Below are positions 10,897 through 37,146 of a stretch of DNA of 38,373 nucleotides, piece after piece (the first letter of the stretch is position 1; every line of letters starts with the position of its first letter). A program made the position numbers and the translations under genes. The DNA is from Craspedostauros australis (Eukaryota): positions 1-38,373 of the forward strand of contig JALAGF010004873.1 in assembly GCA_030167865.1 (NCBI GenBank), written 5' to 3'. The notes under the pieces are model-generated. The model did not search any database, had not been told where the DNA came from, and saw only the letters and a program-made list of their open reading frames with translations.

Positions 10897-13800
10897 TTAG
10901 ATGTTTCCAGTGGCCCTTCTTCGGTTGTTCGTGTACTTGCTGCGCACGTAGCTGCGCAAGTCGCCACCGGACCTCCTGGATTGACGGCTGCTCAGGGATT
11001 CCCCACCTCCTCGGCTGTTGGATTCGTGGGCAGATCCCAGAGATTCATCCATGGCGCTGTCGTGAGAGTCGTTCGACTCCTGACCTCTCGCCTGGCCTTC
11101 CAGGTAGCTCCCGAATTCGCTGCCGCTGCGTGCGCTCTCCGGCGAGAATGATTCCAAGTCGAAGTTCAGGTTCTTGGGTGGATTCACTGAATCTGGGTTG
11201 GATGAGTAGCTCCTGCTCACAGTGAAAGTTGCCTGCGTGTTGTCGTCATTGTCAAAGAACTTCTGAGGTTGGGACTGCGGCTGCGGCTTTGACTGATGCC
11301 GTGGTTGGTGTTTGGAGTCATACTGACGCAGCGTTTCCTTCAGTCTGCGGCTGGACGTGGAGAATGTGGCAGAGTTGTTGGAGAACGTTGATATGTCGTC
11401 GCCCAAACCTCTGCCGTCGATTTGTCGCAGCTGATCTGTGAGCCGTTTGCACTCAAAGTTCTTCTCCTTCAGCTCGCGTTCCAACGTGTTCATTTTGCGC
11501 TCCATCATCTCCCTCTGCGCGGTGAGGTCGTTCAGCGCATCCTTAAGATCGTCGATCTTGCATCCATAGGATGCCTGCTTCTCCTCGATCTCTTTGTTGA
11601 ACTTCTCACGCAGCGTCTTGGCTGTCTCCACTGCCCTGGTGGCCAAGACCTTGGCGTGCTCCAGTTCTCCCTCCTTCCTGTCGAGCTCTTCGCGGAAGTA
11701 GGCGATGTCCTCGTCACGTTCTGACATCGCTGGGATCATGTTTTCGAGCGCAAGAAGTATTTGCTGCTTTTCGTCTTCGACATGGGCAATCTCCTTCTTG
11801 AAGCGTTCGTTCTCTGCCATCGAGGTTTGAAGCTGTCGTTCCATCTCATCTAGCTGCCCTCCTCTGCCGGAATCAGCGTCGCGAGACTTCTTCGTTTCCT
11901 CCTCGAGCGACGCGATCTTCGCTCGCAGTGCATCGGCCTCCGTCGACACTCCGGCGGCATCGTACCTAATCATATCGAGAGCCTCCTGCAGCTTGTGCTT
12001 GGTGTTCGTGTCACGATCAAGCTTCTGTTCGAGTTCGACGATTTGCATGTTCTTCCTGTCTTCCATTTCCCGCAGCGCCCTCTCTGAGCGTTCCAACTTC
12101 GAGGTCAGCTCCGACACCTTCGTGCGGAGCTCGTCCTTGGCTCTCGACTGCGTACTGAGCCTGGTCTCGAATTCGATTTTTTCCATCTCAAAGTGTCGAA
12201 CCTCAGATCTTTTGTCGTCCATCTCCTTCACGATTTGGTCAGCCTTCTGCTTGGCGACGTCCCTCGCGCGGTTGGCTTGATCAAGCTTCGTCCTGAGCCC
12301 GGACACCTCGTGCTGCAAGTTGTCGATTTCGGATTTGAGCTTGTCCAGCTGGCTTCGAGCACCCACAGCCTCCTGCTCGGTGTGCTTTTGCGCGTACGTC
12401 TGTGCATGCAGCTTGGCCTCCAATGACGACACCTGCTCCGAGTAGGAAGTGACCGATGCATTCAGATCTTTCACCTTTTGCCGCAGCTCTCCTTCCACCT
12501 TCCCAATCTTCTGCTTGTGCTCATCGCACTCCTTCGTTTTGGTGTCCAGCTCAGCAAGCAGAGATGGGATCTTCTGCCTGAGCTCGGCGATTTGCTTGTC
12601 TTTGCGATCGAGCTCGGCGCTGGTCGCGGCAATCTGCTGCTTCACGCCTTGGTGGTCCTTCTTGACGTCCTCCAGCTGCGACACTTCCGCGCTGTATCTG
12701 CCGATGGCATCCTTCATCTCCCTCCGCTTATTCTCGAGCTCCTCCTGGGCTTCCTTCAGCTTGAAGTTGAGCTCCTCGTTCTTCATCGACCTCTGCTCCA
12801 CGTCTGCCTCCAGTTCCATCACCTTCCTCGTGTTGCGTTGAATGAGGTCTTGCGTATGCCGTTGCTTGTCTTCCAACTCGCCGCGTGCGCTCTGCAGCTT
12901 GTCCTCGACTTCCGACTTGGTCTGAGTCTCCTCCTCCAGCTTGCTTTGAAGCTCAGAAATCTCCTTCGCGTACTTCTGCACGACCTCGCGCATGTACTTG
13001 TCCTTCATCTGGAGTTCTGCTGTCGTGCCGTCCTTGGTGATGGAGTAGTTGCGCTTGGTTTGTGCCAACTCCGTTCGGACGTCTTCGAGACCAATGCGTG
13101 CCTGAGACAGCTCTTCCGCCTGCTCGGCCTTCTCCTTCTGGAGCTCCTTCACTGAACCCTGCAGACGTTCGATGCTGGCCTCGAGAGACACCTTTTGCTG
13201 TTCTGCATTCTCGATCTTGGCCTCGAGATCCGCGATCTGCTGCCTTGACTGTTTCTGAGACTCCGCGAAGGATTTCTCCTTCCGATCAAGCCTCTCTTCA
13301 AGGCTGCTCTTCGTTGCCGCGACGTGGAGATGCTCCTCGACCAGGGCGGACACCTCGGCATAGTCGCTGCGGAGGTTGGCCATCTCCTTCTCCTTCTTCG
13401 TCTTTTCGGTTGTCAGCTTGGCGATGTCCCGCTCGGCAGATTCCAGCGACTTCTCCGTGGCCGATTTGTCTGCGAGCAAGTCATTCACTTGATGCTCCAG
13501 CGACTGGACCCTTGACTCGAGTCGCCCTTGCATCTCGTTGAACATGCGATCCTTCTTCTTGATTTCGGACTGGTTGTCCTCCTTCTCGATTGACAGCTGG
13601 TGCTCCGTCTCGACCAGCTTCGCCGTCAGCTCCTCGCAATCCTTGCGGAATCTGTGGGATTCGGAGATTTGCTTCTTCTTCTCTTCCTCGATCGTTAGAA
13701 GGCGCATCTTCATTTCCTTCGCCAATTCCTCGAGCTCGGACAACATCTTCACCTTCTGCTTAAGGCCGAGGATCTGGTCCTGGAGGCGGTCGATGGTGGC

Positions 13801-16551
13801 ATCCTTCTCGGTGACCTTGCTCTTCTCCTTCTCCACGCGATCGAGGGCCTCCTCGATCTGCCGTCGCAGACCCTCCATCTCCGAGAGCTTCTGCCGCTCT
13901 TCCATGGAGTTCGATGCTGCGAGGTGCAGCTTGTGCTCCAGCTGTTCGATGGTGGATCGCTTCTGTTTCAGGCTCGTTTCGCTCGCGCGCACCTTGCTCT
14001 CGAGCTTGAGGATCGTGCTCTGCAGGTCGTCCTTGGTCTTCTCGAAGTCCAATCGTTCCTCGAGAACCTCATCCTGCAAGGTCTTGTAGCTGGTCTTGGT
14101 CTGCTCCAGCTTCTTCTCCAACCTCACGCTCGCCTCGGTGGATGACAGCTTCCTATCCTCGATCTCGTCGTTGGCCTGCTGCAGCTGCGCCTCCAGCTTG
14201 CGGATAGAGTCCTGCCTGGCCTGCTCCAGTTCGGCGAATTCCGCTTCCTGCTTGGCAACCTCGGTCTTGAGCTTGGACTCGATGGCACGGAATTGCTTGC
14301 GCTGGGCTTCGATGGCATCATCGCGATCTCGCATCTCCGTAATGTGCTTGCTCTCCATCTCCGCCATGAACTCGCGGGCCTTGTTGTCCTCGATCTGAAC
14401 GCGCATGCCGAGCTCCTTGATGCGTTTGTCCTTGTCCGCGATATCTTTCATGCACGTGTCCAATCGGTTGCGCATGTCCTCCAACTCCCGTGATCGGTCC
14501 ATGTCCTTGCGTTCAAATTCCTCGCACGACGATCGTTCCTTCGTCTCTGCCTCCTTGATGCGATGGGAGAGATCCTGTCTCGTCTGATCGTAGGACAGCT
14601 GCAGCGACTCCAGCTCTCGCCGCAGCTTCTCGGCCGCCTGGCTCTCGTCACGGCGGACCTGATCCACCACGGCTTCCTTCATGTCCTCCAAGTCCCTTTG
14701 ATTTTGTTTGTTGCGTTCCTGCAGTTCGGCATGATGGCGGTCCGTCTGGTGGCGCAGCTGCTCCTGCATGGATTTGATTCGGGCCTCGAACTTTTGAATC
14801 TCGTCGGCGTGCTTCACCACCATGGTCTGCATCTTGACGGTGGTGGAACTCTGATCGTCCTTGCGTTGCGTCAGCGACTCCTCGACCTCCTGACGTAGCG
14901 CGTCGATGGCCTTCTGCTGGTCGAGGATCAGCTCTGCCTGCTGCGCGTCCTTCTTCTTGGACAGCATGATGGCATGATCCTTGTCCGCGAGGTCCTTGGC
15001 CTGCTTGTCGATTTGGTCATGGGCATGCGTGATGTCGTCGTTGGTGAGCTGGAGCTGTTCGTTGAGGCTGGCGATGCGTTTCTCGTAGGTGGCATCCTTC
15101 TCATCGGAAGTCGATTTGAGCGATGACTTGAGGAACTTGATCTCCTGCTGCATCTTGGCCATGTCGTGCTTCTTGCGCTCCAGCTTGGACAGGAGACTGA
15201 CCTTGACGGTCTTGACCTCGGAGAGCTCCATCTCCAGAGAATCCTCCTTGGCCTTGAGATCGCCGACCGTGGCATCCTTTTGTCTGCACCTGGTCTGCGC
15301 ATCTTCCAGCTGCTTGAGAAGTCGTTGGTGCTGCTGTCGCGTGTTGGATAGATCGGCCTTTGCTTCATCCACGTGTTCCTGCACCCGATGCAACTTCGTG
15401 GCCTGGTCACGCAGCTTGGCTTGGTACTCTTCCTCCATCTGTCTCTTGCGCTGCTCGTTGTCGGTGTACGCGACGTGCATTTCGTGGGTGAGACGCTGGA
15501 GATCCTCCTGCAGACGACCCACCAGCTCGCCGTTGCGCTGCGCGGAAGCGAGGCGTGGTTTCTGGTTTTCCAGCTCGGTCTGCGCACCATGCAGCTTCTT
15601 TTCGAGATTCTTGAGCTCCTGCACGAGGTTCTGGCATTCGAGTTCCACTTCGTGACGCCCCAGCTTCGAGATCGTTCGCGGTGACAGCGGCTGGTACTTG
15701 CTCTGCATTTGAGGTATGTGGATCTGCCTCGTGGATGCTGCCGCAGCGTTGCCAATGCTCCCCTGCCTCAAAGATGACTGGAGGACGGGGGCTGCGACGT
15801 TGCGTTGCACCGTCGGCGTCATGGGTTCATTCGTTGGTGGTGGCAGCCGTTGTGAGCGCGGGTTGGAGGCGGCTCGGATGACTTTGGGGATGGACGATTG
15901 GTCGCGCTTGCTCTGCGTTGGCTGAGGTGTTAGGTTGAGAGATGGCGCCTGCCTGGGAGTCTTCGGTGCTGCGTGACGTGTTGACACCTTCTCCGTGTCA
16001 AGCTCGGCGAAGAACTGCTCCTCCTCCAAATCATCGGTGAGGCTTTTGTTGTGATTGCTGAGCGGGTACGACTGACGGTTCTTCCTTGCAGTGGACGATG
16101 AAGAACGTGCATACGAGGGGTTGGCACTCGTTTGCCCCATCCGTTGCCCATGCTGCTGCAACAACTGGTCGGCTGCGTAGAGAGCGTCTCCGCTGGATTT
16201 GCGCACCCTGCCGGTGCTCGCCGCACGTGCTGCCGACGAACGCGACGCCGTGCGATTGCCCGCGCCATTGCCATTCATGTACTCTTCGTATGCAGCCGAA
16301 GGATGCTTGCGTACTTGTTGCTGATCCTGGTAGTGCGGTTGCGGTTGAGGCTGCCTCTTGGCTGACTGGGGGCGCATGCTGGATTTGGATCGTCTGTCGG
16401 AACCGGCAGGATAGTGCTGCCTGGAGTGCGAGCTTTGCTTGGTGTGGATCTCCCAGTTCTCAAAAGAGTTCTGCGGTCTGGGGGTCTCTTGCCGCCTGGG
16501 TCGCGGCTGCGATTGGTACCGCCGGTTGCTGCCGCTGGTGCCGTTCATCAT
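10897..16551 (-). CDS. Large coiled-coil protein (1884 aa) with disordered Ser/Gln/Arg-rich termini; function unknown
   Basis: Uninterrupted ORF with about 1400 aa of E/K/L/Q heptad-like sequence. The first ATG is at 16551 and there is an in-frame TAA upstream at 16612-16614. Confidence 0.85.
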   Translation of the reverse strand: MMNGTSGSNRRYQSQPRPRRQETPRPQNSFENWEIHTKQSSHSRQHYPAGSDRRSKSSMRPQSAKRQPQPQPHYQDQQQVRKHPSAAYEEYMNGNGAGNRTASRSSAARAASTGRVRKSSGDALYAADQLLQQHGQRMGQTSANPSYARSSSSTARKNRQSYPLSNHNKSLTDDLEEEQFFAELDTEKVSTRHAAPKTPRQAPSLNLTPQPTQSKRDQSSIPKVIRAASNPRSQRLPPPTNEPMTPTVQRNVAAPVLQSSLRQGSIGNAAAASTRQIHIPQMQSKYQPLSPRTISKLGRHEVELECQNLVQELKNLEKKLHGAQTELENQKPRLASAQRNGELVGRLQEDLQRLTHEMHVAYTDNEQRKRQMEEEYQAKLRDQATKLHRVQEHVDEAKADLSNTRQQHQRLLKQLEDAQTRCRQKDATVGDLKAKEDSLEMELSEVKTVKVSLLSKLERKKHDMAKMQQEIKFLKSSLKSTSDEKDATYEKRIASLNEQLQLTNDDITHAHDQIDKQAKDLADKDHAIMLSKKKDAQQAELILDQQKAIDALRQEVEESLTQRKDDQSSTTVKMQTMVVKHADEIQKFEARIKSMQEQLRHQTDRHHAELQERNKQNQRDLEDMKEAVVDQVRRDESQAAEKLRRELESLQLSYDQTRQDLSHRIKEAETKERSSCEEFERKDMDRSRELEDMRNRLDTCMKDIADKDKRIKELGMRVQIEDNKAREFMAEMESKHITEMRDRDDAIEAQRKQFRAIESKLKTEVAKQEAEFAELEQARQDSIRKLEAQLQQANDEIEDRKLSSTEASVRLEKKLEQTKTSYKTLQDEVLEERLDFEKTKDDLQSTILKLESKVRASETSLKQKRSTIEQLEHKLHLAASNSMEERQKLSEMEGLRRQIEEALDRVEKEKSKVTEKDATIDRLQDQILGLKQKVKMLSELEELAKEMKMRLLTIEEEKKKQISESHRFRKDCEELTAKLVETEHQLSIEKEDNQSEIKKKDRMFNEMQGRLESRVQSLEHQVNDLLADKSATEKSLESAERDIAKLTTEKTKKEKEMANLRSDYAEVSALVEEHLHVAATKSSLEERLDRKEKSFAESQKQSRQQIADLEAKIENAEQQKVSLEASIERLQGSVKELQKEKAEQAEELSQARIGLEDVRTELAQTKRNYSITKDGTTAELQMKDKYMREVVQKYAKEISELQSKLEEETQTKSEVEDKLQSARGELEDKQRHTQDLIQRNTRKVMELEADVEQRSMKNEELNFKLKEAQEELENKRREMKDAIGRYSAEVSQLEDVKKDHQGVKQQIAATSAELDRKDKQIAELRQKIPSLLAELDTKTKECDEHKQKIGKVEGELRQKVKDLNASVTSYSEQVSSLEAKLHAQTYAQKHTEQEAVGARSQLDKLKSEIDNLQHEVSGLRTKLDQANRARDVAKQKADQIVKEMDDKRSEVRHFEMEKIEFETRLSTQSRAKDELRTKVSELTSKLERSERALREMEDRKNMQIVELEQKLDRDTNTKHKLQEALDMIRYDAAGVSTEADALRAKIASLEEETKKSRDADSGRGGQLDEMERQLQTSMAENERFKKEIAHVEDEKQQILLALENMIPAMSERDEDIAYFREELDRKEGELEHAKVLATRAVETAKTLREKFNKEIEEKQASYGCKIDDLKDALNDLTAQREMMERKMNTLERELKEKNFECKRLTDQLRQIDGRGLGDDISTFSNNSATFSTSSRRLKETLRQYDSKHQPRHQSKPQPQSQPQKFFDNDDNTQATFTVSRSYSSNPDSVNPPKNLNFDLESFSPESARSGSEFGSYLEGQARGQESNDSHDSAMDESLGSAHESNSRGGGESLSSRQSRRSGGDLRSYVRSKYTNNRRRATGNI

Positions 16552-17644
16552 CTCAGTCGTCGTTGCGATGTGGACTCTCAAAGGTCGCCGTCGACCGCGA
16601 TGGATTGCTGCTTATGGGGGCGCGCAATTCCACGAGTCCTGAATCGTCGATCGGCGGCAGGTGCGTCTTTTGATTGGGTCCAAAGGAGCTGGGTCAGTTG
16701 CTCCAAGTCTTCAGCTCCAATCGTGAGATGAGTGCTCGTGCGGCGCAGAGTATTGCTCGAGTAAAACTTGCTGGAGTGGTCCTTGTTGGGCACACGCTCA
16801 CGATGAGCGGAGAAGACCGACGGACAAGGCACACTCCTCCCCGAGTATTGAAGATTGGAGTATGTTGCAGCAGAGTGTCCTGGTATGATGGGTGGAAGGA
16901 AGCACCGATGGTAGTGGACGCCTCTGCCGTTTTGCAATCGCACCTTGGCTCGGCAACGCGTGGAAACTCCTCTGTGCTAGTTGGCTCCACTCCGTCTGCC
17001 TCTCCAACTTTGGGTGCTTCAGTGGATGCTGCAACTGTTGCGGCCTTGCTGGCTTCGTCTCCGAAGTATTCGATGCAGTTGGCCGATTGAGGAGGTGCAA
17101 TGCTTTGCAATGTGATGTGACGGAATGGGTTGAGATGTGATATGATGTGATGGAGAATGTTTGTGGCGAAGTTGGCAGGTGTTGACGTGGGGATGTTGTG
17201 CTTTCGCCCAGCCCTCGAGAGAGCCTTCCTTCGCAATGGATGCTCCTCCTCGACTCGACTTGCCACCGTTATGCTTTGTCGGTCGGTGAGTGAGTGAGTG
17301 AGTGGGCGAGTGAGTGAGTTGGATGACGGCTCTCTTGGGAGGCCTCCGGATGCACAATGGCACCGACAGAAAGAGAAGAAATAGTGGACCTTGGCCCACA
17401 AGGAGCGTTTCTCTGTTCGACTCTCCGTTTGCCTGTCTTTGGGGTTTCAAAAGATGCCGCGCTGCGAGTTTTACCGCTTTCGCAAACAAAGCGAGAAAAC
17501 ACAAGACAGAGCAGCGTTCACTCGTGTTGGCTCTTCTCATTTGTGCGCGCGCATGCTACATTTCAAACGAAGACGACATCATATGACTAAACACATGTTA
17601 ATAAAATCAAATACAATAGACGTTAATAACGTTAATCATGCCAA

Positions 17645-18605: not shown

Positions 18606-19661
18606 TTAGTCGCAGGACGTCCCGTCGTCGTCCACTCTGCATTCCGCGACGCTTCGGAAGAGAATTCCCGTGCGAATGATCTCGCGGTCGTGGTAGAGGA
18701 ACAAGGCGCTGTAGGAGAGACCGAGGATGGAGAAGGTCTTGTTCCACACCCAGGCCGGAAGGATGTTGCCTCCCGTCGTGCTCTGGAACGAGGCGCAGGC
18801 AGTGAATGCACCGACGAAGAAGCTCGCGAGAATGGCGAGGCCGAGGTAGGTACCCTCGGTGCGGAACTTGGGCTTGCCAGCCTTCATGCTGAAACTGTCC
18901 ATGGCCTGCTGCGCGAGCCTCGTGTAGTGGCCCGTGATGACGAAGGTGAGGGTTCCGGCGACCTGCTGGCCGACGGAGTTGACGAGGCCGAACCCGGCGG
19001 ACAGCATGGTGACCGGCAGCCAGCGATTCTGCAGCATGTTCATGAGGATGTCGCTGCCCACGAAGAGGGACGCGACGAGCGGGGCGCAGACGAGCGCCAG
19101 GGACTTCTTCTCCAGCTTGGAATTGGATTGGCGGAAGGACACGATGCCGGCGAGGTAGGCGATGATGACGGTGAGGTAGTAAACGGCGTCCATCGGCCGT
19201 GACTCCACCAAAGCACGGGCCATCCACATGGTGTTGCCCGTCATCATGGTGGAGAAGGTCTGGTACTTGAGGAAGGTCGCCACTTGCCCCCATCCCGTGA
19301 GGAAGGCCATGACCGCGGCGAAGCGCTTCTTGCCCATGCTGTTGGTTTGGGCGGGCATCTTGATTGCGGCAACTGCCTTGGAGAGTTCGACCGCCTTGGC
19401 TGTGCCTCGACGGGACATGTCAGCCGAAGCGGCTTCCGATGAGAAGAGCACGCTCCTTTCGAATGCTACGGCTGACGGCCGGCTCTGAGGTACAACCCAG
19501 CTCGGCTGTGACGTTGATGGGGCACGAAAATGCAATGCGGAAGATCTCGCATTGGAGACGGCATTTCTTGTGCTGGCGGAATATGCCTCGCAGCGTGGTG
19601 CCTGTTGGCATGCGACGAGACAAGCCACGATTGCGGCAACGTTTCTTGATGATATCCTCAT
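18606..19661 (-). CDS. DUF1275 (YoaK-like) membrane protein with a probable bipartite plastid-targeting presequence
   Basis: The motifs FLTGWG..FSTMMTGNT and GLVNS..TFVITG are typical of DUF1275. A signal peptide ending CEA|Y is followed by a Ser/Ala/Arg-rich transit region. Confidence 0.8.
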   Translation of the reverse strand: MRISSRNVAAIVACLVACQQAPRCEAYSASTRNAVSNARSSALHFRAPSTSQPSWVVPQSRPSAVAFERSVLFSSEAASADMSRRGTAKAVELSKAVAAIKMPAQTNSMGKKRFAAVMAFLTGWGQVATFLKYQTFSTMMTGNTMWMARALVESRPMDAVYYLTVIIAYLAGIVSFRQSNSKLEKKSLALVCAPLVASLFVGSDILMNMLQNRWLPVTMLSAGFGLVNSVGQQVAGTLTFVITGHYTRLAQQAMDSFSMKAGKPKFRTEGTYLGLAILASFFVGAFTACASFQSTTGGNILPAWVWNKTFSILGLSYSALFLYHDREIIRTGILFRSVAECRVDDDGTSCD

Positions 19662-20438
19662 GGTGATGCTTTGTTTTGGATGTCGTTTGATTTGATCTCT
19701 GTGTTGGAGGTCTGGTTGAGCGATCGTGCGAGGCGAGAAAGGACGGGTAGTGGCGATGCCTGTGTGTGTGGTGTGTTGTGTTTTGCTTGTGTTTGTGTTT
19801 GTGTGTTGTGGTGGCGTGGTGGCGTGGTGGTGCGTCGGCAGATTTTTTGGTCGTTCTGTGTTTTTGTGACCAGTTCGGTAGCGAAAGGTATCGTGGTGAG
19901 TTGCGTGTCGTTTTGGTGGGTTGTGGTCGATCCCCTTTCAATCACACAACCAATCCAACATCCGCGTGCGTTGCTCGCACTGGTGCTCTGTGCTCGCATC
20001 ACTGTTCCCGCACTCACTCGCCTGCGATTGATGTCTGTTTTCGTCCGGTCTCAATTCTGGTTGTGACCAAATTCCAGAACCTGCGCCAATTGTTGCATTT
20101 GCGAATCAGAATTGTTCTGATCGGTCGTGACACAGTCATGACGTCATCCCAGATGATTGCATTTTCGCGTGGAAAGAAGCACACATGCCAAATGATGATA
20201 CAGCCTAAAACAAATGTTGGAAATTCGACGAAACCTGCGTCACGAAATTCAGCATCCGAACAACACGAAGAACGTGGATGGAGGGACACACTATCAGCAA
20301 CGACAATGGCGACAGTACTTCTCGGACTCGCGTTCGTACTCGTACTCGCACTCCCAGTTGTGCTCGCGTCCGCAGGCGTGGTTGGAGAGCACGATGAATC
20401 GGACAGTCAGGCACAATGACAATCGCATTGACGACGAA

Positions 20439-20470
<32 letters not shown>

Positions 20471-20755
20471 TGATGATATAAGATCACCGAGAGAAATCAA
20501 AGCTGCCTCCGACGACAAGTGAGCGGTTCATCCAGAAGATAGCGAGGAAAGAGGACAGAGGAGATACAGACGAGGATGCAGAAGAGGATGCAGAAGAGGC
20601 TGGTGGCGGATGCGATTTCAAGCCACAGCGCATCCAACGAGATGGCACAGCACCACGGAGTCAAAAGACGGCCAAGGCAGATCCATCACCGACAAATCCA
20701 TGCGAATGCTCAGCCACACTCGCGGCCAACACAGACGGGTTCACGACCTGCAACG

Positions 20756-22225
20756 ATGGCATTGCCCGCGTCAATGCTACCGTCTGGAAGATCGGACAGC
20801 ACGGACAGCAAATCACCGCCATTCAAACGGATGCATCTCCCGCCAACCAAGGCCGTCGTTATGATGGTATTCGCCATGGTCTTCTGCATCGCCTCGGTCT
20901 TCGTCATCGTATCCATCAGCAACGACAACATGTTCGTGACAAGGTCGCACGATCAGTTCCGACAGATCCAGATTCGGTTCCACAGCCCCATCCAAACAAG
21001 AAGTACGAGCGCATTTGGAGCGCAAAAACCTGACAGCGCGGCAGGCACAGACCTGTTCTCATCGTCATCGTTGCGGGCGTCTTCTACTCCTCTTTCACTG
21101 CCGTCTCCGCAGTCGAAGATGGCTGGAAACACCGCCCCACAGTACAAGCTCAACTGGAATCCTTGGCAGGCAAAGTACGAGCAGATCGATTGGCACGAGT
21201 TGCAAAAGACGACCACGAACAAGACACTCGTCGTCATCATCGGCAACCTCCGCGGCGGCCCCCTCGCGTGGGAAACCTTGCAGAAGCAGGTCCTCGACAT
21301 CAACCCAAACACGGACTTGGCACTCATGATTGGCGATCAGGAGATGGACCACGCGCCGTCATCAGCAGCATTCATGACCAATCACAAGAGTCGGTTCGCG
21401 GCATCATCGTTGGCGCAAGATGACCCAGCGTCGATGCTATTCCAAGCAGCCAAGTACGTGTGGACGTTTCCCGAATTTGACGATTGGGCGGATGCGATGG
21501 ACATCGTCGATCCCACGCAACGGTGGGAGCGCGAAGTCCTGCCGCTCATGATCAACCGCACCGGATTGATCGGTGGCGTGCGCGACTTCAAGGGCAGCGG
21601 CAGCATCATCTTCATGGCCAGGTGGTATGCGATGCAGCACATCTTGCACTTTGACCTGTTGCGCGAATACGATCGCTTCGTCATCACCAGATCCGATCAC
21701 TACTACAAATGCGCGCACGATCTCTCCCAGCTGGACCCCAACTACATCTGGGTTCCGAAAGGCGAGGACTACAGCGGCCTCACCGATCGACATGCGGTCG
21801 TGCCGCGAGAGCTTGTGCTGCCCGCGTTGGATTTGATGCACACGATGCTGCATCATCCGCCACCCTGCACGCACTTCCCGAAGAGGCGGTTCAAATTCCA
21901 CTTCGCCTGCAGGATCCGGCTCAATCCAGAGCAATGGATTGAGTACCAATGGGATCGTGCCGGCCTGCTGCCCTACGTCCGAAGGATGGACCGTGTCATG
22001 TTCACTTGTGCTACCCAAAATGACACAACAAGATGGCAGGAGGCGACGGATGTTGCGACAGGCGGCGCATCGGCTGATATTTCTGCTGCTGCGATCATTG
22101 GCCCACACAGGCCAAGCAACGAACCGCCGCAGGAGTTCTCAGAACCACCTCCACAGGGTCTGCTTCTGAAGTATGTGAAGGAGTACGAAATGAGCTTGGC
22201 AACCTGCGGCAGAAGGCACACATGA
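20756..22225 (+). CDS. Type II membrane protein, putative glycosyltransferase-like (alternative upstream ATGs at 20576 and 20642)
   Basis: A single N-terminal TM anchor and Ser-rich stem precede a globular domain (LVVIIGNLRGG, YDRFVITRSDHY, IWVPKGEDYSGLTDRHAV). Codon usage is coding-like. Confidence 0.65.
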   Translation: MALPASMLPSGRSDSTDSKSPPFKRMHLPPTKAVVMMVFAMVFCIASVFVIVSISNDNMFVTRSHDQFRQIQIRFHSPIQTRSTSAFGAQKPDSAAGTDLFSSSSLRASSTPLSLPSPQSKMAGNTAPQYKLNWNPWQAKYEQIDWHELQKTTTNKTLVVIIGNLRGGPLAWETLQKQVLDINPNTDLALMIGDQEMDHAPSSAAFMTNHKSRFAASSLAQDDPASMLFQAAKYVWTFPEFDDWADAMDIVDPTQRWEREVLPLMINRTGLIGGVRDFKGSGSIIFMARWYAMQHILHFDLLREYDRFVITRSDHYYKCAHDLSQLDPNYIWVPKGEDYSGLTDRHAVVPRELVLPALDLMHTMLHHPPPCTHFPKRRFKFHFACRIRLNPEQWIEYQWDRAGLLPYVRRMDRVMFTCATQNDTTRWQEATDVATGGASADISAAAIIGPHRPSNEPPQEFSEPPPQGLLLKYVKEYEMSLATCGRRHT

Positions 22226-22816
22226 TGAGTGCAAAATAAAGAAATAACTCAAGGATTAGCGTGTTTTAGTTGACTGTGCCATCAGTTCTTTTCTCTGCCC
22301 CCTTGCAACTGCCTGCACCACAGGCAGAGCGCACGGAATCGGATGGAATGTGTTGAGTGTATCATGTAGAGTGGATGGTTGGGCGATGGCCGGTGAGTTG
22401 CCATGCCATAATGAATCTCCCTCCTTACACTTCTACTGTCATGAAGCCTCGTCGTATGCCCTCCTTGCACATGAGGCAAGTGCTGACAAGCGATCTTGGT
22501 GTGATGCAGTTGTTTGGCTGTGGGAAATGGAGGGCCTTCACGTTGTCCGAGAGTCTGTGGATTCCATGTGAGCTTGCGCATGCCGTTGTACCATCCTTTG
22601 GCAGAAACAGGAGCAGACAACTAGTCCATCTATGCACTACGATGACAGACATGACCAGCACTTGCACCAGAGGGGAGGTGGTGACATTGCCCCATCATGT
22701 TGCTGGTGGCAAGAGCACAGCAAGCACACCATCTAAACATCGAGCACCATCAGATCAACCATCGGGAACCACATTTTTAGCAAGGCGCAACGAGCATCCG
22801 TCAAGCGCCATTAGGT

Positions 22817-23095
22817 CACGCACACATGCACACGCACGCACACATGCACACGCACGCACACACACAGCAAGAGCGAGAAAGCCACCTCCAAACACAAACG
22901 ACAAGAGGTCCCAGCGGTTGCAGATCGGTGCTTCCATCCCCTTCAAAACGCACACACTAACACTAAGACGAACACTGACACTAACACTGACACTAACACT
23001 AAGACTAACACGCTCACACACGAATACGCTCACGCACGAATACACTCACACACAAATACACTCACACGCTCACACACCAACACAGCATCATCACA
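22817..23095 (+). repeat. CA-rich compound microsatellite (CACG/CACA and ACACTA units)
   Basis: Directly visible; similar CA-rich tracts precede several start codons in this window. Confidence 0.85.
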
Positions 23096-23106
23096 TTGAC
23101 AACGAC

Positions 23107-23269
23107 GTCCAACCGCCAGCTTGGAGGACAAGCTATCACAGGGAACTTGCTTCTGTGGTCTTTTGAGCCGTCTGCTGCTGATGATGATCATCGTTACGCA
23201 GTTGACGGCTCATTAGAACCACAAAATCAAATTCCCGTGAAAACTTGTCCTCCAGGATGGAGGTTGGAC
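23107..23269. ncRNA. Long imperfect hairpin (about 78-bp stem, 4-nt loop); candidate small-RNA precursor
   Basis: Manual alignment of 23107-23185 against 23190-23269 gives about 68 pairs, 10 mismatches and 3 single-nt bulges, with a GATC loop. There is no credible ORF. The hairpin is clearly present, but RNA function is unproven. Confidence 0.5.
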
Positions 23270-23871
23270 TGTTTTAATTTATGTGACATTGTGCGTTGCC
23301 GTTCTTTCGTTGGCGCAATTCGAACAGTTGTACGACTAGCAGTAGCAGTAGCAGTAGCCGTAACAGTGACAGGCACAATAGCTGCACGGCTCACCAGAAA
23401 ACCCCAAAATTAACACGCACGATCCACGAGGAAAGAGTGGCGAGCGCGGATGCCTCCTTGGGACTTGTGCCTCTTGTTCTTCCTGTTGTTTCGGATACCA
23501 CAAAGGGTCGCATGCCACATAAGATCGCACGTACAGAATGCAGTAGTAAGTGTCGTAAGTGTCCTATGACTCAGTGTCAGTTTGGTACTTGATTCGGAGG
23601 GTACTTGCCAGGTATCGAGTGTTTTTAAATAAGCGTTTACCGCATCTCCCAATCTGCATCCCTGAGTTTGTTCCATTGTGATTCGCCAACAAAATGTGTT
23701 CGTTTGATTGTGCTGTTGTGTTCGTCCTTGGCGGACTGCATGCCGGATCGTTTTGGTCGTCACATTAATAGTTTGTATTAGATCGTTCGCACGGGTATGG
23801 ATAGACTCGACCTATTCCAAGCCACTCTACATCGATGAATTCTGCTCTAAACAACACGGCGGCGGCCTTGA

Positions 23872-26220
23872 TCACATCTCCAGCCAATTCTTGACCATGG
23901 CGGCTGCCTTCGTTCCGGTATGAATGGATTGGAACTGCTCTGCGTCCGTGTAGTCGCGGAAGGTCTTCCACTGCTTCGAACTCTGCGAGGCGTTCTCGTC
24001 TGCCGTTTCCAAGAACCTGTGATTGGCGGTCAGAGCGTTGTGAAACGCCATGCGCTTGCCGGCATCGTTCAAGCGCGCATACGTTCCCAATGGTGCCGGG
24101 TACGATGATTTCTGCATCACGTCGGCCAGTAGCCGTATCGAATGGGAAAGCTGCTTGTACAGGTGGTCTCGCCATTGCGCTGCAACACCGTTGTCCTGGT
24201 CATCGCCCTCCTCGGCGGCGCGATCAAGGAGCGCCGAAAGAACCTCGTCGTAGTTGGCATCCATGGACTTCCTCAGGACCGGGACATCCATCTCGGCAAG
24301 GCTGCGATCCTGGTGGTGCTGTATCATATCTGCTTGGGTGGGGATCTTGAGCTCTCCAGTAATGTACGCCGCAAATATCCAGGCAAACGCATCATGATCC
24401 AGCAGCGGGTTGTTGGTCAGGTCGTGAAAGTACATCATGCGCGGATTTCGTATCTATGCGTTGCCGTTATCGTTGGCGATATCGTTGAAATTGGGAAGGT
24501 GGAAAGATGTGTCAGATTGCGTCCATGCGCTTGTCAATGATGCACGTGCAGGAAGGTTCAATGCGGATGGTTCCATGCATGCCGTCGGAGGCACTCACAA
24601 ACACAGAGACTCAGCAGGTCGCCGCAGAATAGTGCAGAAAACAAGAGCAAGGGGCCAATGTGACAGTGGAAGGTAGCCTGCCTTCCAACTCCGCTGCCAC
24701 TTCGCTACACTGTTTTGCACTGCGATGTGCGCTTGATCGCATTGTGCCGCACTTACCAAGAGACCGTAGTAATTGGCTGGCGCGCGGGTTTCATGAAAAG
24801 CGCACTGCGGCGACGGCTCGACGTGGCCAAGTTCCTCCGTGAAGCTGTTTTCCGCCATGCTCCAACCATCTGGGATTTTGAAACTGAACTCATGATGTTT
24901 GTCGAGCAGGTCCTCGCTGAGCATGTGCGTTGCCGGATGGTATCCGGTGCAGAATATGACGGCATCGATGTTCTCCAAGGATCCTTCGATCTCGTTCCAG
25001 CCTCGGTACCCGCCTTGCCGACTCCATTCGACTTCTTCAAAATGAATCGTGCTGCCTTCCGCAGCCAAGATGCGGAGACCATTGTGAACCGAGACCTTGT
25101 TGCCTGGCCAGCTGGTTGTGTACTCGATGTAGGAATCGAAGCTGCGCGACACGATGTGAACATGGTGCGCGCCGAGCTTGATGGCCTGCAGGGCAAGATC
25201 CTCGGCCGAGTACTTGCCCCCCACCAGTAGGATGCGCTTGCCTTTCACGGTGGACTCCAAGTTCGCAGTGTCCGCGGAGTGCAGGATGGGGCCGGGGAAT
25301 CCACCGGCCAGCAGCATGTCCACCGCGTCCTGCGGGATCAGCTGCTTGCCGTTGGTCCCCGCGCTCCACACGCAGTAATCGAAGTCTCGCGTGGTGGTGG
25401 CCTTCGTGATCAAATTCGTCGTCGTGACTTCGAATTTTTGCTTGGAATCGCTGAACGCGACATGCTGGACCTCCGTATTGAAGTGCATGTAGTCATCGAA
25501 AAAGGACGGGTTGTGACGCGTGACGCGCGCAATAATATAGTCCAGCACGTCCTTCCGTGGCAAGTACACGGTGACGGGTCGCCGGAAGTGATCATCGAAG
25601 GTGTAGTCGAAGAACTCCATGTTGTGCGAGGCCCCGTTCGTCCAGAGGTTGTCATACATTTCGACCGCGCCGATGTCGGATGTGTCGGATCCATTTGCCT
25701 TCCTCCAAACGCCGCCAGGACTGGAGGCCCTTTCAAAACAATGGATATCGAATGCTCTGCATCCGTTGGATTCTCTTGTGCCTGACTGCGGTTGCGACTG
25801 TGTCTCGGGTTGCGCCTGATGCTGCAGCTGCCGCTGCCGCTGCCGCCGTAGCTGTTGCTGTGACTGGTTCATCCTCTCGTCCATGTGGTAGCAAAAGAAC
25901 ATACCGCCAGGGCCTCCCCCAATGACGCAGATAGATTGGGTGGCATCGCCATCGCCATCACCATCGCCAATACCATCGGCACCGATATCACAATGATCGT
26001 TGAACACGTCCGACAGAGGAGACGTGGATGTGTCCTTGGTGCCTGCGGTGTTTCCATCGTGACCTCCAACTTTGCCAGGCGGTTCCGTCTGTGAAAGGAA
26101 GGGATTTTGAGGTGAAGTCGGCGTCGAGGCTGGACCTGAAGATGCTTGGAAAGCGAAGGACGTGATGTTTATGCTCTGCGAAAGCGAGAGCCACGACGGA
26201 AGCAGGTTGAGGTTGTTCAT
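23872..26220 (-). CDS. Flavin-containing monooxygenase (class B), similar to bacterial trimethylamine monooxygenase/mFMO; exons 26220-24757 and 24453-23872
   Basis: FAD motif IGGGPGG, MYDNLWTNG, FMO motif FPGPILHS, NADPH motif VGGKYSAEDLA and FCTGY. A phase-0 intron joins YYGLL|IRNPRMMY. Confidence 0.9.
24454..24756 (-). other. Spliceosomal intron (303 nt)
   Basis: Minus-strand donor GTAAGT at 24756 and acceptor GCATAG ending at 24454. Confidence 0.85.
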
Positions 26221-27006
26221 GCTCTACCGATACACGTAGAGTATCATGCTCTCCTCTTTCTCTCTGTCTTTCTCGCCTTTGCTTTGGCTAAGATTGGGGA
26301 TGGGCTCAGCGTTCCTTGCACAGTGCACCGTGCACCGTGCACCTTGTGGCGTGAAGTGGATGTATTATTATGTGTTCGTTGTGTTGGAGTATTTGCGAGC
26401 GTTGTGTTGATGGGTCTGCCGACTTCGGGTTCAGCAGCGTTTTTGGCAACGGTTGGAATGTTGGTTTGTTGTGTTTGTTCGCGTGATACGCTGTTGTGCA
26501 GAATCTCGTTTGCCCCAAACTCGTGTTCGTCGTGTTGTACCAGTACCGCCGAAATTGTTGGAGCCGCCGTACCTTGTGGCTCCCATGATGCCAGGCTCTC
26601 TGCTATTATAAATGTGTGGCTGTCCATTCGAATACTCTGCTTCTTGGGCTCAAGGTCAGCTCGCTCCGCCGTTCCCCTTTTGGATTGAACCTTTTGGCTG
26701 CCATTGCCACGCACATGAACAGGGCCTCGGCAACTCTCGTGCATACTAATAGTCGTACAATAGGACCTACTACAACTCCATTTCATTTTATCAATGCGAG
26801 TATCATCCTGCTTCATTCTTCGCGCGCAATGCGCTGCCCACTTGAGCTCCGGCGTCAGCTACTGGATCGCATCGTTGCTTTCCATTGAACCTCCAACTCG
26901 ACTTGGCTGCGTCCTTTTCTTTGCCTCTCTGTCTCCGTCTCTTGCGGCCCGTGGTGCAAGAAGTGGAGGCGTGCGGTATGTAAGGTAAGGCATGGTGTGC
27001 GTCGTG

Positions 27007-28248
27007 TCATATCAGTTCGGGACACTGCTTCCCCACATGCCCGGTTTGCAAGCATGCGTGGCAGTGCTCGTGATCGAATGGACAGTCGGATTTGGAGCAT
27101 CCATCTTTGTGGTAGTTGTAGTACCGGCAGATGGCCGTCTTGCCATCCTTCGGCGACAGCATCAACGGAGCGCGCAACGGATGCTTCGGTCGAGCCCGTC
27201 TTAATTTGTGCGCCTTGAACCATGCCCAACCGTCAGTGATCGACCCCGTTTCGCGATCGATGGTGGCCGATTCTCGCACGATCTGCACCAGCGCCCTGCT
27301 TTTGATGACAAGGAGCTGCGTGGTGCGGAAGGTCGACAGCACCCAAGTGATCATGCGCAAGACACCGATAGACTCTCGATTCCCGCCAATGTCCATGAAG
27401 ATGCAGGTCGGCGATGTTTGCGTACCGAAGTGCATGGCCTCAGATTCTGCTCGCTTGGGATCGATGAGCGCATCTATCTTCGCCCAGTGGCAATTGGCGC
27501 AGCTTGGGCTGTCACCACTACCCTGCGCAGCTGTTTGTGGAGAAGAGAAAGCAGAATCGTTCGTTGGCGATGCAGCAGATTGCTGCACGAGAGCCTTACA
27601 CGTGGCGATCATTTGATCCGAGGTGTCAAATCCGACCCATGTCTTCACCAGCGGGACGAGCATGCGAGACGTTTCTCCTGTGGAGCAACCAATCTCAAGG
27701 CAATGATCGTCTTTGCGTACCTGGTACGCTAGCTGGCGGAATGGAGCTGTCTCGGGCGTGATGAGTACGGTGCAGTCCGCCCGTCGCATTCTTCGGTCAT
27801 CGTCGTCTGTGCAGGGCCCTCTGTTGGCGGTACGTTTGTCATTGACGTTCCCACTGGCATCGGCATCACCATTGGCATCGGCATCATGGTTGGCTTTCGC
27901 TTTATCGCCACCAGCGGTGTCGGCATGAGTAGCTGCATCTGCCCCGCGAAAGGATCGCATGATGTGCTGCCGATCATTGCCGGCAAGGCGCAAGATCTCA
28001 TCTTGCCCGCCAGCGACCTTGATCTCCACGACCTTCTTTTCTATATCCACCGCGATCACCGTCCCCATCCTCAAGGGTACGACACGACCGTCCGCGTCCT
28101 TCTTCGTTGGCTTTATGAGGACTTGCTGACCAACCTGGCATTCGCAGCCGAACTTGGCCTTGCGCTTTGCGGGTGGGTAAAGGTACCACTGAGTGATGCG
28201 CTGCGTTCTGGCACGCTTCGGCTTCGGCGGCTCTGTCGATCGCTCCAT
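27007..28248 (-). CDS. Class I SAM-dependent methyltransferase-like protein with a C-terminal CCCH finger and CCHC knuckle (413 aa)
   Basis: Motif I CLEIGCSTGETS, then VGFDTS and IFMDIGGNR. The C-terminus has CRYYNYHKDGCSKSDCPFDH and CHACLQTGHVGKQC. The first in-frame ATG is at 28248. Confidence 0.8.
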   Translation of the reverse strand: MERSTEPPKPKRARTQRITQWYLYPPAKRKAKFGCECQVGQQVLIKPTKKDADGRVVPLRMGTVIAVDIEKKVVEIKVAGGQDEILRLAGNDRQHIMRSFRGADAATHADTAGGDKAKANHDADANGDADASGNVNDKRTANRGPCTDDDDRRMRRADCTVLITPETAPFRQLAYQVRKDDHCLEIGCSTGETSRMLVPLVKTWVGFDTSDQMIATCKALVQQSAASPTNDSAFSSPQTAAQGSGDSPSCANCHWAKIDALIDPKRAESEAMHFGTQTSPTCIFMDIGGNRESIGVLRMITWVLSTFRTTQLLVIKSRALVQIVRESATIDRETGSITDGWAWFKAHKLRRARPKHPLRAPLMLSPKDGKTAICRYYNYHKDGCSKSDCPFDHEHCHACLQTGHVGKQCPELI

Positions 28249-30553: not shown

Positions 30554-30626
30554 TAACCGCGGTGGGAATCGAACCCACGATCTTCTCGGTGTAAACGAGA
30601 CGTCATCACCCCTAGACCACGCAGTC
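30554..30626 (-). tRNA. trnV: tRNA-Val (TAC)
   Basis: 73-nt cloverleaf with acceptor GACTGCG/CGCGGTT, anticodon arm TCTCG-TTTACAC-CGAGA and T-loop GGTTCGATTCC; a TTTT Pol III terminator lies just downstream. Confidence 0.95.
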
Positions 30627-32055: not shown

Positions 32056-33230
32056 GTTGGTAAGTCCTGTCGATGAAAAGGACGATGCGGATGTTTATGA
32101 AATGAAGGATGTGGAAAGACCACTGCTGATACAAGGATCCTGCCGTCTGCGACGAGTAGCAACGGTCGAATGGAGATGAAGGAATTGTCAGAGAATGCGT
32201 TCGTGATAATTGATGGTATGTCACCGTGCGATGAAACAAGCGCGAGCCAAACAAAGAGAGAGAGAGAGTGTGTGTGTGTCTGCGTGTGAGCGTCCGATTC
32301 CATTCCCAATCATTCATCCATGCATCCGCTCGGCTGCCCAGCTGTTCAGCACCGACCAAGGCAAGGGCAGAAGCGAATTCCAAACACAACAACATACTGC
32401 TCCTCCTCCTCCTCGTGGTGCAGCGACACAGCGCTTGACGTTCCAATGACATGACACTCGCGCAACGGTACGTACTCTCGTTCTTGCGTTGGTCTGCGAA
32501 GAATGGAAGGTTGTTGTGGGTATTGGCACTGGGATGGAGAACGATGATGCGCCTTGCTTTGTGATTCCGTCGGTTGTGTGAGGACTTTGGTACTGTGTTG
32601 AGATGTGTTGAGCGTTGATGTTGTGTTTGTTCGAAGTCTCGTTGATGTTCTTGGCTTGCCTCATTTGCGTGCGTTTTTTGTGGACGAAGGTATTCGGCGA
32701 GCGACCACGTTGGCTTTGGGATGTTTGACTCAGACGGAAAATGTGCGTGTCAATGCAATCTTTGCGATTGGGTGAATGAAACGTGTCTCTCTCGTGACCC
32801 AGCCTCTTCATGAATTGGCGCGACCAAATCGCCACGATGGTGGTCTGGTTCTCAAACCGAGAGCGTCGAAGACACATGGCGAACAACACCAAGAAAAACA
32901 CGAAGATGTTCATTCCTCCCATGACAGAACGTCCGCGCCTCTATCTGCACTGTCAAGCACTCGTCGCCATCGGCTTGGCACAACACGCCCATCAGGCCCA
33001 ACCTCCCTGTTGTATCACAGTGATTTCATCCTCGCACAGCGCTGTGCGAGCACAGTCGACCGCTACAGGCTTCAAGAATCCCTCAATGGGCACAGACTAG
33101 AGCAGGGTACTCTGCTCTCATCTGCATCCACATCACTCGCACACATCAACAACGTCTCTCCCTCCCTCCCTTCTTTCGCACATTCAAGCATTCAAGAATC
33201 GTAGTCTGCAGCTCTCCACGCTCGACAATC

Positions 33231-35492
33231 ATGGATTCGATTGAATCAGACGAAACAATCATGGATTCAATTGAATCAGATGAAATGGGCGACATCAATG
33301 AACTGACTTGGTACGGAGTAACGCCGCTAATAGAAGAATGTACGCGCGGCAACTTCAGCGAGGCCAAGGACCTGATCGAGTCAAGCCACGTTCCTGTCGA
33401 AGCCAACACCAGAGACGACCAGGGCAACACGGCATTCCTCTATGTTTGCGCCCATGGGAGCCTCGAGTTCGTGAAGTACATGATGGAATCGCCCGACCTT
33501 GACGTGGACATTCACATGACAGGTGTGCACGAAAGAACGGCGCTGCACTTCGCCTGCATCAGCGAGTCTGCTGAAAATGCAAAGTATCTACTCACATTGG
33601 AAGGGTTCGAGGCCTATCAGTTCAAAAAGGACAAAAAAGGCAACATACCTATCCACTCCGGGTGCCAATACGGGCGCAGCATTGCTCCGATGGAATACTT
33701 GATCCAAGCAGATGAGACCAATACTCTTTGCAACATCCGCGACAAACAACGTTTCACCGTTCTTCATCTGGCATGTCAGGATAAGGAGAGATTCGACTTC
33801 GCGGAGTGCTTGGTCCGATTAAGCGAAACCAGCGGAATGAAGATGAACATGAAGGATCGCAGAGGCCACACACCGCTCCACAATGCATGTGAACATGGAT
33901 TGTTGCGGACAGTGAAATGCCTCATGACCAACAACGAGTCTAATTCCCGTCCCACAATCGATCCCAACATCCAAGACAACAAAGGGAGGACACCGTTTCA
34001 TCTTGCTTGGAGCAATAAGCACACAGATGTGATGGATTTCTTGCTTCACACTAAGCACGTCGGCATGTATCTGGACGTTGCTGATCGGAACGGTGACACG
34101 GCACTTCACTTGCTCTTCCGTTCGTACAAGAATGGATCCATTCATCTGATCAATAGCTGGATGGCAATAGCGGGATTCCATGAAGCACTCCGCATGCAGA
34201 ACAACAAGGGGAGAACGCCGTTCCACTATGCATGCGAACATGGCTGGTTGTGCGCGGTGACATGCCTCATGACCAACGACGAATCCAACTCCCGTCCCTC
34301 AATCGATCCCAACATCCAAGACCACGAAGGCAAAACGCTATTTCATCTTGCTTGGAGCAATAAGCACGCAGATGTGATGGATTTCTTACTTCACACTGAG
34401 CACGTGGGCATGCATCTGGACGTTGCCGATCAGAACGGTGACACAGCACTTCACTTGCTCTTCCGCTGGTGCAAGGGCGAACCCATTCATCTGATCAAGG
34501 GCTGGATGGCAATACCGGGGTTCCATGATGCACTCCGCATTCAAAACAGTGATGGGGATACACCATTTCATCTCGCCTGCAGGCTTCAAAACATTCTCCT
34601 GGTGGACTTCCTGATCGAGTCGGACGAAGTGAATGTTGACGCTCGCACGACAAATGGAAAGGGCGATACGCCATTCCACATCGCGTTCGGTGCAGAGGAC
34701 GACACGATGCTTCAATACCTCCTCCGCAAACATGGAACCGAGGTGGATAAGAATGCGAAGAACAACGACGGCAACACGGTGCTACACATCGCAGCTGCCA
34801 ACTACGTGTCTTCTGCAAATAATTTTTGGGAGAGGTTGACACGAGACCACCTCGACGCCAGGATCCAGAACAATGAAGGCGACACGGTGTTCCACCTCGC
34901 CATGAAAACGAGTCAAGAACGCATGGTCCGAACGATGCTTACCTCCAATAATGTCACGCTGGATGTCACAATCACAAACAACAATGGTGATACGGCGCTT
35001 CATCTTGGGTGCACGGGGAAGCACGCCGATGCCGTGATGCCATTTCTTGAGCTTCATCCAAAAATGACCGCCCAGAACAACGATGGCAACACGCCACTCC
35101 ATTTGGCGTATCAAAATGAGCGCTCGGAAATCCTCATGCATTTGCTTCGGGACCACATGGACTATCTGGACCATCGCATCCGAAACAAGGACGGAAACAC
35201 CCCAGCGCACCTGGCCAACAAGGATCGCGTGATCCCATTTTTACAACCCGCTGCGAATATCCAGAACAACGATGGCGACACTGCGCTTCACCACGCAGCC
35301 AGCAACGGTTTCATCAAGATAGCAAAGTCATTGATTCGAACAGAAGGAGCGGATGTGACAATAAAGAACGGCAAAGGAAAAACAGCAATAACCCTTGCGA
35401 GGCGGAAGGCAAAAACGATATTGCCCTTGGCGAAGAGGCAGAAGGTGAAGGATACGGTCGCTTTGCTGCGGAGAGCATGTCCGAAGAAGTGA
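33231..35492 (+). CDS. Ankyrin repeat protein (753 aa)
   Basis: About 18 repeats of N..G.T(P/A)(L/F)H.A, with a basic C-terminus. Confidence 0.92.
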   Translation: MDSIESDETIMDSIESDEMGDINELTWYGVTPLIEECTRGNFSEAKDLIESSHVPVEANTRDDQGNTAFLYVCAHGSLEFVKYMMESPDLDVDIHMTGVHERTALHFACISESAENAKYLLTLEGFEAYQFKKDKKGNIPIHSGCQYGRSIAPMEYLIQADETNTLCNIRDKQRFTVLHLACQDKERFDFAECLVRLSETSGMKMNMKDRRGHTPLHNACEHGLLRTVKCLMTNNESNSRPTIDPNIQDNKGRTPFHLAWSNKHTDVMDFLLHTKHVGMYLDVADRNGDTALHLLFRSYKNGSIHLINSWMAIAGFHEALRMQNNKGRTPFHYACEHGWLCAVTCLMTNDESNSRPSIDPNIQDHEGKTLFHLAWSNKHADVMDFLLHTEHVGMHLDVADQNGDTALHLLFRWCKGEPIHLIKGWMAIPGFHDALRIQNSDGDTPFHLACRLQNILLVDFLIESDEVNVDARTTNGKGDTPFHIAFGAEDDTMLQYLLRKHGTEVDKNAKNNDGNTVLHIAAANYVSSANNFWERLTRDHLDARIQNNEGDTVFHLAMKTSQERMVRTMLTSNNVTLDVTITNNNGDTALHLGCTGKHADAVMPFLELHPKMTAQNNDGNTPLHLAYQNERSEILMHLLRDHMDYLDHRIRNKDGNTPAHLANKDRVIPFLQPAANIQNNDGDTALHHAASNGFIKIAKSLIRTEGADVTIKNGKGKTAITLARRKAKTILPLAKRQKVKDTVALLRRACPKK
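33860..34545 (+). repeat. Internal tandem duplication with a 345-nt (115-aa) period
   Basis: TGCCTCATGACC occurs at 33918 and 34263, and GCACTCCGCAT at 34185 and 34530. Both offsets are 345 nt and nucleotide identity is high. Confidence 0.9.
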
Positions 35493-36085: not shown

Positions 36086-36121
36086 NNNNNNNNNNNNNNN
36101 NNNNNNNNNNNNNNNNNNNNN
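36086..36121. other. Assembly gap (N run)
   Basis: A run of N characters; there is also an NN at 1654-1655. Confidence 0.99.
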
Positions 36122-37146
36122 ATAGTCTTGGCTCATGTGCGATTACATCCCTAGAGGTCGATCCATAGGTTCGCCCTCATTACAGCGGTGGTACATGGAT
36201 AGGTTCCATGGTGGGACATGACTGATGTTGATGTCATTCATGAACAGAGGGTTGATGGGGGACAGGCTGCAAGGTGGTCCGAGTGTTACCAACAAAGTTG
36301 ACCTCGTCGAGTTGTGAAGATATTATTGGGAGGTGCGGCAATCATGGGTATCTTGGTAAAAGCGTACCCCCGATTCCTGACATAATCGACACGAGTAGAA
36401 TGCGTATCATTGCAACTATTCAGGCTCAACAGCCGATGGGCCTGTCATCTGACCCCTGCTGGTCTGTGACGGAGCCGCGGCATCGACATCATGCGAGTGC
36501 GCCTGCGTGAAATACGGAGGATGACGCAGGCTTTGCCTGCCCTGCCTTTGCGATTGAGAGTAGCATGGTCGAACGCAACGCAGTGTGGAGGCTTGTCCAT
36601 GCTTTCTTGCTTGTGAGGGAGGGAGGTGGTGGGGCTGTGGAATAGTGTGTGGTGCTCAATTTGGCAGTGATTGATGGCACTTCCATAGAGCAAGTAGCCT
36701 TCATGGGACCACCTTGGCACGATCGTTTGGATGCTGTGTAGGCATTCACCAAGAGGGATGGGCACATTCTGTGCGCAACGCGAGAGGACACACTCTTCAT
36801 GGACGATTGGCATCCAGGGAACGCCTCCGACGCTTCAACGCTTCAACGCGTGCATGTGTAGCATCTTGCTCTGGGGTATGTCGAGCAGCTGCGGTTGCTG
36901 AGGTTTCGCCGACGACGAACATATCCGGTACGTGTTGTAAAAGCGTGGTCCTCTCAAGTATTATGATGCAGGTTGCTTGTCACATCCTTCACTGTAGCCT
37001 GAATTGAAGTCCTGGTCCGAGCCATGTGAACGAGCTACAAGCAATATTTCATTACGCAAGCCCAGCCCCTTGAACAACTCAAGGACATAGTACAGGAATC
37101 ATGGCATGGTACGCATGTTCGAGGACTGCATGCAGGATAGTGTTTC

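Follow-up and report, generated by a model that had tools for sequence, protein, structure and literature searches.

A long hairpin between convergent genes of Craspedostauros australis: a candidate old inverted duplication in a probably transcribed spacer

Introduction

In plants and animals, hpRNA loci and young MIRNA loci are born by inverted duplication. Many MITEs are short, non-coding and almost wholly palindromic, and palindromic joins are known to arise as artefacts of assembly or amplification. According to the excerpted text of Monttinen, Frilander and Loytynoja 2023 (PMC10710096), template switching is documented to create hairpins whole, and new miRNA genes too where it occurs in transcribed DNA.

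The occurrence of hairpin-derived regulatory small RNAs in diatoms is unsettled. A 2024 study reportedly deals with Dicer-dependent small RNAs in P. tricornutum, and may bear on how diatom Dicer handles hairpins. In the excerpts of PMC4247016 (Rogato et al. 2014), genes of P. tricornutum are silenced by inverted-repeat transgenes, and 'miRNA-like' hairpin loci are described for which the full miRNA criteria were unmet and no Northern signal was obtained. Canonical miRNAs are given as undetectable or most likely absent in diatoms in the excerpts of PMC4247016 and PMC4156623.

Here we describe a hairpin locus in 38,373 nt of DNA from C. australis (GCA_030167865.1, contig JALAGF010004873.1, positions 1 to 38,373, forward strand), the whole of which was analysed and is referred to as the window. 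We hold with moderate confidence that the hairpin is a single, old, local inverted duplication, which is decaying neutrally in a probably transcribed non-coding spacer and is a possible Dicer substrate. The locus offers a concrete, cheap and well-defined test case for the diatom question.

Surrounding genes and the non-coding spacer

Judged by its sequence, the window is eukaryotic and diatom-like. The hairpin had been placed between two convergent genes by the initial annotation, and a + strand gene and a - strand gene do face each other across it. The upstream gene (20543..22225, +) is a 560-codon open frame of coding-type composition with a weak match to DUF7796, and its stop codon (22223-22225) is followed by an AATAAA motif at 22236-22241. 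The opposing gene is FMO-like and lies on the - strand, with a first exon at about 24757-25941 (placed by tblastn of relatives), a predicted GT...AG intron at 24454-24756, and a last exon at 23872..24453 that includes the stop codon (23872-23874). A search of 6,068 candidates gave its open frame 185 relatives with an E-value of at most 0.001 (best 53% identity); those that carry names come from diatom transcriptomes or genomes, including Thalassiosira oceanica, Attheya sp. and Chaetoceros debilis. When 6 of the 120 relatives listed were aligned to the window by tblastn, all 6 matched in separate pieces, which in five of them span about 25941-24751 and 24453-23875; the remaining one (P0063) aligns in three pieces, 25932-24766, 24522-24133 and 24072-23875.

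The tail-to-tail spacer between the two stop codons is 1,647 nt long, and the hairpin lies 881 nt past the stop of the + gene and 602 nt past that of the FMO-like gene. Third-position GC is 0.39-0.57 in 8 spacer frames, compared with 0.61-0.88 in 7 known coding stretches, a comparison that omits the row for a TMEM144-like gene, which had been started out of frame. None of the 4 spacer frames submitted to Pfam gives a match, and the ATG-started ORFs of the spacer are short or of low complexity. Two longer + strand frames were considered as coding and rejected: 23009-23413, which no stop codon interrupts from end to end of the hairpin, lacks a long ATG-started ORF and a Pfam match and has a third-position GC of 0.39, and for 22357-23166, too, Pfam returns nothing. 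Judged by frame composition, the spacer carries no coding signal, in keeping with the earlier remark that no protein follows the CA-rich tract described below. A TAGCAG microsatellite of 5.2 copies occupies 23337-23367, 70 nt to the right of the hairpin. Elsewhere in the window, a 345-bp unit is present in 2.0 tandem copies with 86% identity (33873-34548, +) inside an 822-codon ankyrin-repeat ORF (33024-35492), and runs of N at 1654-1655 and 36086-36121 (38 N in total) mark assembly gaps far from the hairpin.

A CA-rich tract with short tandem repeats (22812..23126, +; 75-81% C+A) adjoins the left arm of the hairpin. It had been likened to tracts that precede protein starts elsewhere in the window, and at least four other long ORFs do have a sense-strand CA-rich tract at their upstream end, as defined by the open frame. 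These tracts lie at 6051-6130 (+), 19639-19933 (-), 26335-26485 (-, upstream of the FMO-like gene) and 32543-32694 (-), and C+A content across these sense-strand tracts, including 22812-23126, is 75-91%. In this genome, such tracts may mark promoters or 5' leaders. "Leader-like" is a fair description of the tract before the hairpin and, if the analogy holds, would indicate the + strand. Further tracts of this kind, with no gene assigned to them, occur at 876-979, 1714-1801, 17121-17207 and 36582-36682 (all -) and at 2834-2971 (+).

Structure and stability of the hairpin

The hairpin is an imperfect palindrome of 163 nt (23107..23269) that can form on either strand, with 67 pairs. Its left arm of 81 nt (23107..23187) and right arm of 82 nt (23188..23269) were delimited by gapped alignment, in which 65 of 79 aligned letters of the left arm are the reverse complement of the right. 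The axis falls between 23187 and 23188, within a perfect palindromic centre of 10 nt (GATGATCATC, 23183..23192), and the spacer between the arms is zero. An ungapped repeat search recovers shorter arms (23107-23178 and 23198-23269) with 71% complementarity. Among the 14 inverted repeats listed for the whole 38-kb window, the runner-up has arms of 26 nt, and the hairpin is the sole large inverted repeat.

Folding of both strands as RNA reproduces the hairpin at the position first given for it. The + strand forms one continuous hairpin of -100.4 kcal/mol (z -14.81; mean of the dinucleotide shuffles -43.4 kcal/mol) and the - strand one of -100.0 kcal/mol (z -14.62), with 0 of 200 shuffles as stable in either case. 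As single-stranded DNA the same letters give -55.6 kcal/mol (z -12.03), and the stem persists when 501 nt of context (22950-23450) are folded with it. The minimum-energy fold of the + strand has 63 Watson-Crick and 4 G:U pairs, and that of the - strand has 3 G:U pairs. The initial annotation had counted about 68 of 78 opposed positions as paired, which is close to the present 67, and its wobble counts of 5 (+) and 4 (-) were slightly too high. The 67-pair stem is a stable stem-loop with few small bulges, as is asked of miRNA precursors under the criteria for plants and animals applied here.

Copy number, mobility and sequence relatives

A target-site duplication of 2-10 bp was sought at boundaries with pairing termini, for element starts at 23090-23120 and ends at 23255-23289 (at the left end, 17 nt outward to 14 nt inward; at the right end, 14 nt inward to 20 nt outward), and gave 0 candidates. 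With blastn, the hairpin and 1 kb around it match only themselves in the 38-kb window, other matches having at most 12 identical letters. Among 30,610 contig records of one public sequencing run (X1, described below), record 2 alone reaches the hairpin, and no record can be placed twice. When metagenome contigs were scanned with a 26-nt consensus of the termini, two loci were returned (L001, 778-803; L002, 374-399), both of 42% GC and with the same 26-nt variant, and with neither a hairpin nor anything else in common with the window. As the likeness is confined to those 26 nt, they were rejected as relatives of the hairpin, and their match is probably to an unrelated repeat of another organism. 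The same consensus found 0 loci in viral contigs. Within the window, the X1 contigs and the metagenome and viral contig scans, the hairpin is thus apparently single copy, and it is not MITE-like. The earlier suggestion that it might prove to belong to a multicopy MITE family with target-site duplications found no footing in the limited sequence searched, where neither a duplication nor a second copy was seen.

The blastn check for targets and further copies that had been proposed likewise returned none within the 38-kb window. Also within the window, every match elsewhere to a 21-mer of the hairpin, from either strand, has at least 5 mismatches; in 30 shuffled controls the closest matches had 3-5. 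One 15-mer of the stem has 11 window matches with up to 3 mismatches, against about 1 expected. Seven of these (2-3 mismatches each) are on the - strand inside a coiled-coil ORF at 10897-16611, and one more is at 9600-9614. Homology or targeting was rejected as their explanation, with blastn finding at most 11-12 identical letters there and the 21-mers having at least 5 mismatches; we read them as codon words common to a repetitive gene. This ORF (10897-16611, -) is an open frame of 1,904 codons with weak coiled-coil-type Pfam matches (Filament, DUF1664, AAA_13), all below cut-offs.

At Rfam gathering scores the hairpin has no match, and the only match in the window is a tRNA gene elsewhere (30554-30626, -; 62.9 bits). 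With E up to 5, the region 22230-23870 gives three chance-level, non-miRNA matches of 13-17 bits, against cut-offs of 35-64.

Divergence of the arms

When the first arm is aligned, with gaps, to the reverse complement of the second, 65 positions match and the differences are 7 transitions, 7 transversions and 4 gap columns, for an identity of about 82% or a divergence of about 18%. The transitions that leave a wobble pair number 4 on the + strand and 3 on the - strand, so neither strand is favoured. For comparison, a null model was built from a perfect zero-spacer palindrome, derived from either arm, to which 14 random substitutions and 3 indels were applied (4 settings, 300 runs each). Mean energies under the model range from -97.6 to -111.8 kcal/mol (sd 8.1-9.3). 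The observed -100.4 kcal/mol is equalled or exceeded in stability by 34-90% of runs. The model expects 3.2-4.2 G:U pairs, compared with the 4 and 3 observed. Neither the within-sequence comparison of the arms nor the null model gives any sign of selection on pairing or on either strand. Neutral decay suffices for both the observed stability and the differences between the arms, in line with the caveat, attached to the locus from the start, that it might be a decayed inverted duplication. The neutral-looking pattern is nevertheless compatible with function as double-stranded RNA, because a source of hairpin siRNAs needs only to be double-stranded.

Transcription of the spacer

The locus is present in the contigs of one public sequencing run, X1, in which 0.42 of the sampled words were found. 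This run does not come from a small-RNA library. Seven of its 30,610 records match within the stretch 19500-27500, and the 5 informative ones have no differing letters. We infer that the run behaves like RNA from one splice-site coincidence and depth arithmetic, the label supplied by the tool being a guess. Three features point this way. Record 5 matches 24074-24453, its match breaking off precisely where the 3' splice site of the FMO-like gene is predicted, and the other 19 letters of this record explain the depth of 0.62 in the donor-site bin 24573-24839 (19 x 8.77 / 267). The third feature is the end of record 1 at 22268, which is 27 nt beyond the AATAAA of the + gene. The FMO-like intron itself has no X1 cover. 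In the last exon of the FMO-like gene (23899-23901), a single base, 23900, separates two adjoining X1 contigs and may be a variable site.

Record 2 is a contig of 629 letters and depth 18 that matches 22521..23149 of the window exactly, with no strand assigned. It runs colinearly through the CA-rich tract (its letters 297-499 fall on skipped repeats, 22817-23019) and stops 43 nt inside the left arm without a loose end. Therefore the non-coding stretch that adjoins and enters the hairpin, including its first 43 nt, is probably transcribed, apparently apart from the mRNA of the left gene. This lends support to part of the earlier suggestion of an independent + strand non-coding transcript, in the form of an RNA-like contig over 22521-23149, with cover of the hairpin itself reaching only its first 43 nt. 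The X1 contigs have no cover on 22269-22520 or 23150-23746, which is not evidence of silence, and those of the FMO-like gene extend only to 23747, about 480 nt from the hairpin. The contig end at 23149, 43 nt from the base of the stem, was considered as a cleavage site and rejected, as contigs cannot show RNA ends.

Proposed origin and alternative explanations

In the reading that we favour, a stretch of about 81 nt of non-coding DNA would have gained a reversed copy of itself right beside it, with no spacer, and most likely replication or repair made this error by fold-back or template switching. The inverted copy lies against its source with zero spacer, as such an error would leave it, and the locus is therefore read as a fold-back or template-switch duplication, unlike a transposon with an internal segment. 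The arms would then have drifted to about 82% identity with no detectable constraint. If RNA runs through both arms, it would form a stem of about 67 pairs, a suitable Dicer substrate, and any small RNAs derived from it would be a potential by-product of the locus, which requires no selected function. A neutral mutational scar is enough to explain all the observations.

As a counterpoint, the leader-like tract, the transcribed stretch and the unusually wide tail-to-tail spacer together would have the look of an independent non-coding gene. A functional small-RNA gene, miRNA-like or hpRNA, in which a + strand transcript with a CA leader carries a Dicer-cut stem that silences targets elsewhere, would also account for the stable stem with small bulges only, the resemblance of the sense-strand CA-rich tract to those upstream of genes, the RNA-like contig over that tract and 43 nt of the 5' arm, and a spacer devoid of coding signal. 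It agrees too with a hairpin that is single copy as far as seen and lacks a target-site duplication, and with the silencing by inverted-repeat transgenes and the 'miRNA-like' hairpin loci of P. tricornutum reported in the excerpts of PMC4247016. We nevertheless consider such a gene unlikely, in view of the absence of any sign of selection on pairing or on either strand, of an Rfam family at gathering scores or with E up to 5, and of a match to any hairpin 21-mer in the window with fewer than 5 mismatches, and of the surveys (PMC4247016 and PMC4156623, as excerpted) that found canonical miRNAs undetectable or most likely absent in diatoms. Its more specific form, an independently transcribed gene whose CA-rich leader drives a + strand ncRNA and whose 67-pair stem is diced to discrete small RNAs, is unlikelier still. 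The relic of a miniature inverted-repeat or foldback transposon, inserted and then decayed, would be short, non-coding and almost wholly palindromic, as this element is, but we judge this origin improbable: no boundary tried shows a 2-10 bp target-site duplication, there is no second copy in the 38-kb window and only record 2 of X1 touches the hairpin, the metagenome scan gave two loci with no hairpin and the viral scan 0, and the palindrome has neither a spacer nor an internal unique segment.

The position between convergent genes, the equally good folding of both strands and the end of an X1 contig inside the stem could alternatively point to a structural element that ends converging transcription, either as a bidirectional stop or as a 3'-end structure. 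To our knowledge, however, eukaryotic nuclear genes do not usually end at long hairpins. The + gene apparently ends about 840 nt earlier (AATAAA and contig end at 22268), the contigs of the FMO-like gene stop at 23747, some 480 nt short of the hairpin, the ends of contigs do not reveal those of RNAs, and no such structure is present at the other gene pairs of the window, all of which makes this role quite improbable. A chimeric palindromic join made in assembly would fit the fact that the independent contig confirms only the first 43 nt, but artefactual fold-backs are perfect copies, and here the arms differ at 14 letters and 4 gap columns and both flanks run on into ordinary unique sequence; we regard such an artefact as extremely unlikely.

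The locus is thus non-coding and probably transcribed at least up to the stem. On the preferred reading, that of a local inverted duplication, it is of a known kind and a potential source of hpRNA. It is then raw material, a copying error that made a hairpin in a transcribed spacer, and by itself ordinary; in the excerpts of PMC10710096, such errors are proposed to seed new miRNA genes. Should it be a true small-RNA gene, it would stand as a clear structural candidate for a class of RNA, miRNA-like or hpRNA, that surveys of model diatoms did not validate.

Comparison with known systems

MITEs and foldback transposons share with the locus a short, non-coding and palindromic sequence, and it differs from them in having no target-site duplication, no second copy found and no internal non-palindromic segment. 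With hpRNA loci and young MIRNA loci it shares a long, nearly continuous imperfect stem and a non-coding, here probably transcribed, setting. Young plant MIRNA loci stay similar to their source gene, whereas no parent or target was found here within 38 kb.

The 'miRNA-like' loci of P. tricornutum, as they appear in the excerpts of PMC4247016, are also intergenic hairpins of a diatom and of similar size, one of them being 144 nt long (chr1: 2,453,906-2,454,049). They were defined by small-RNA reads, whereas the present hairpin is defined by structure alone, and the likeness is one of setting and size. The template-switch hairpins of Monttinen, Frilander and Loytynoja 2023 (PMC10710096) are, in the excerpted text, animal-type miRNA stems with a preferred length of about 35 bp, compared with about 67 pairs and 81-nt arms here. 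As is proposed for the present locus, the whole stem of these hairpins is made in one event by a local inverted copy. The present hairpin, too, lies in a probably transcribed region where it could be expressed, is apparently single copy and has no transposon hallmarks.
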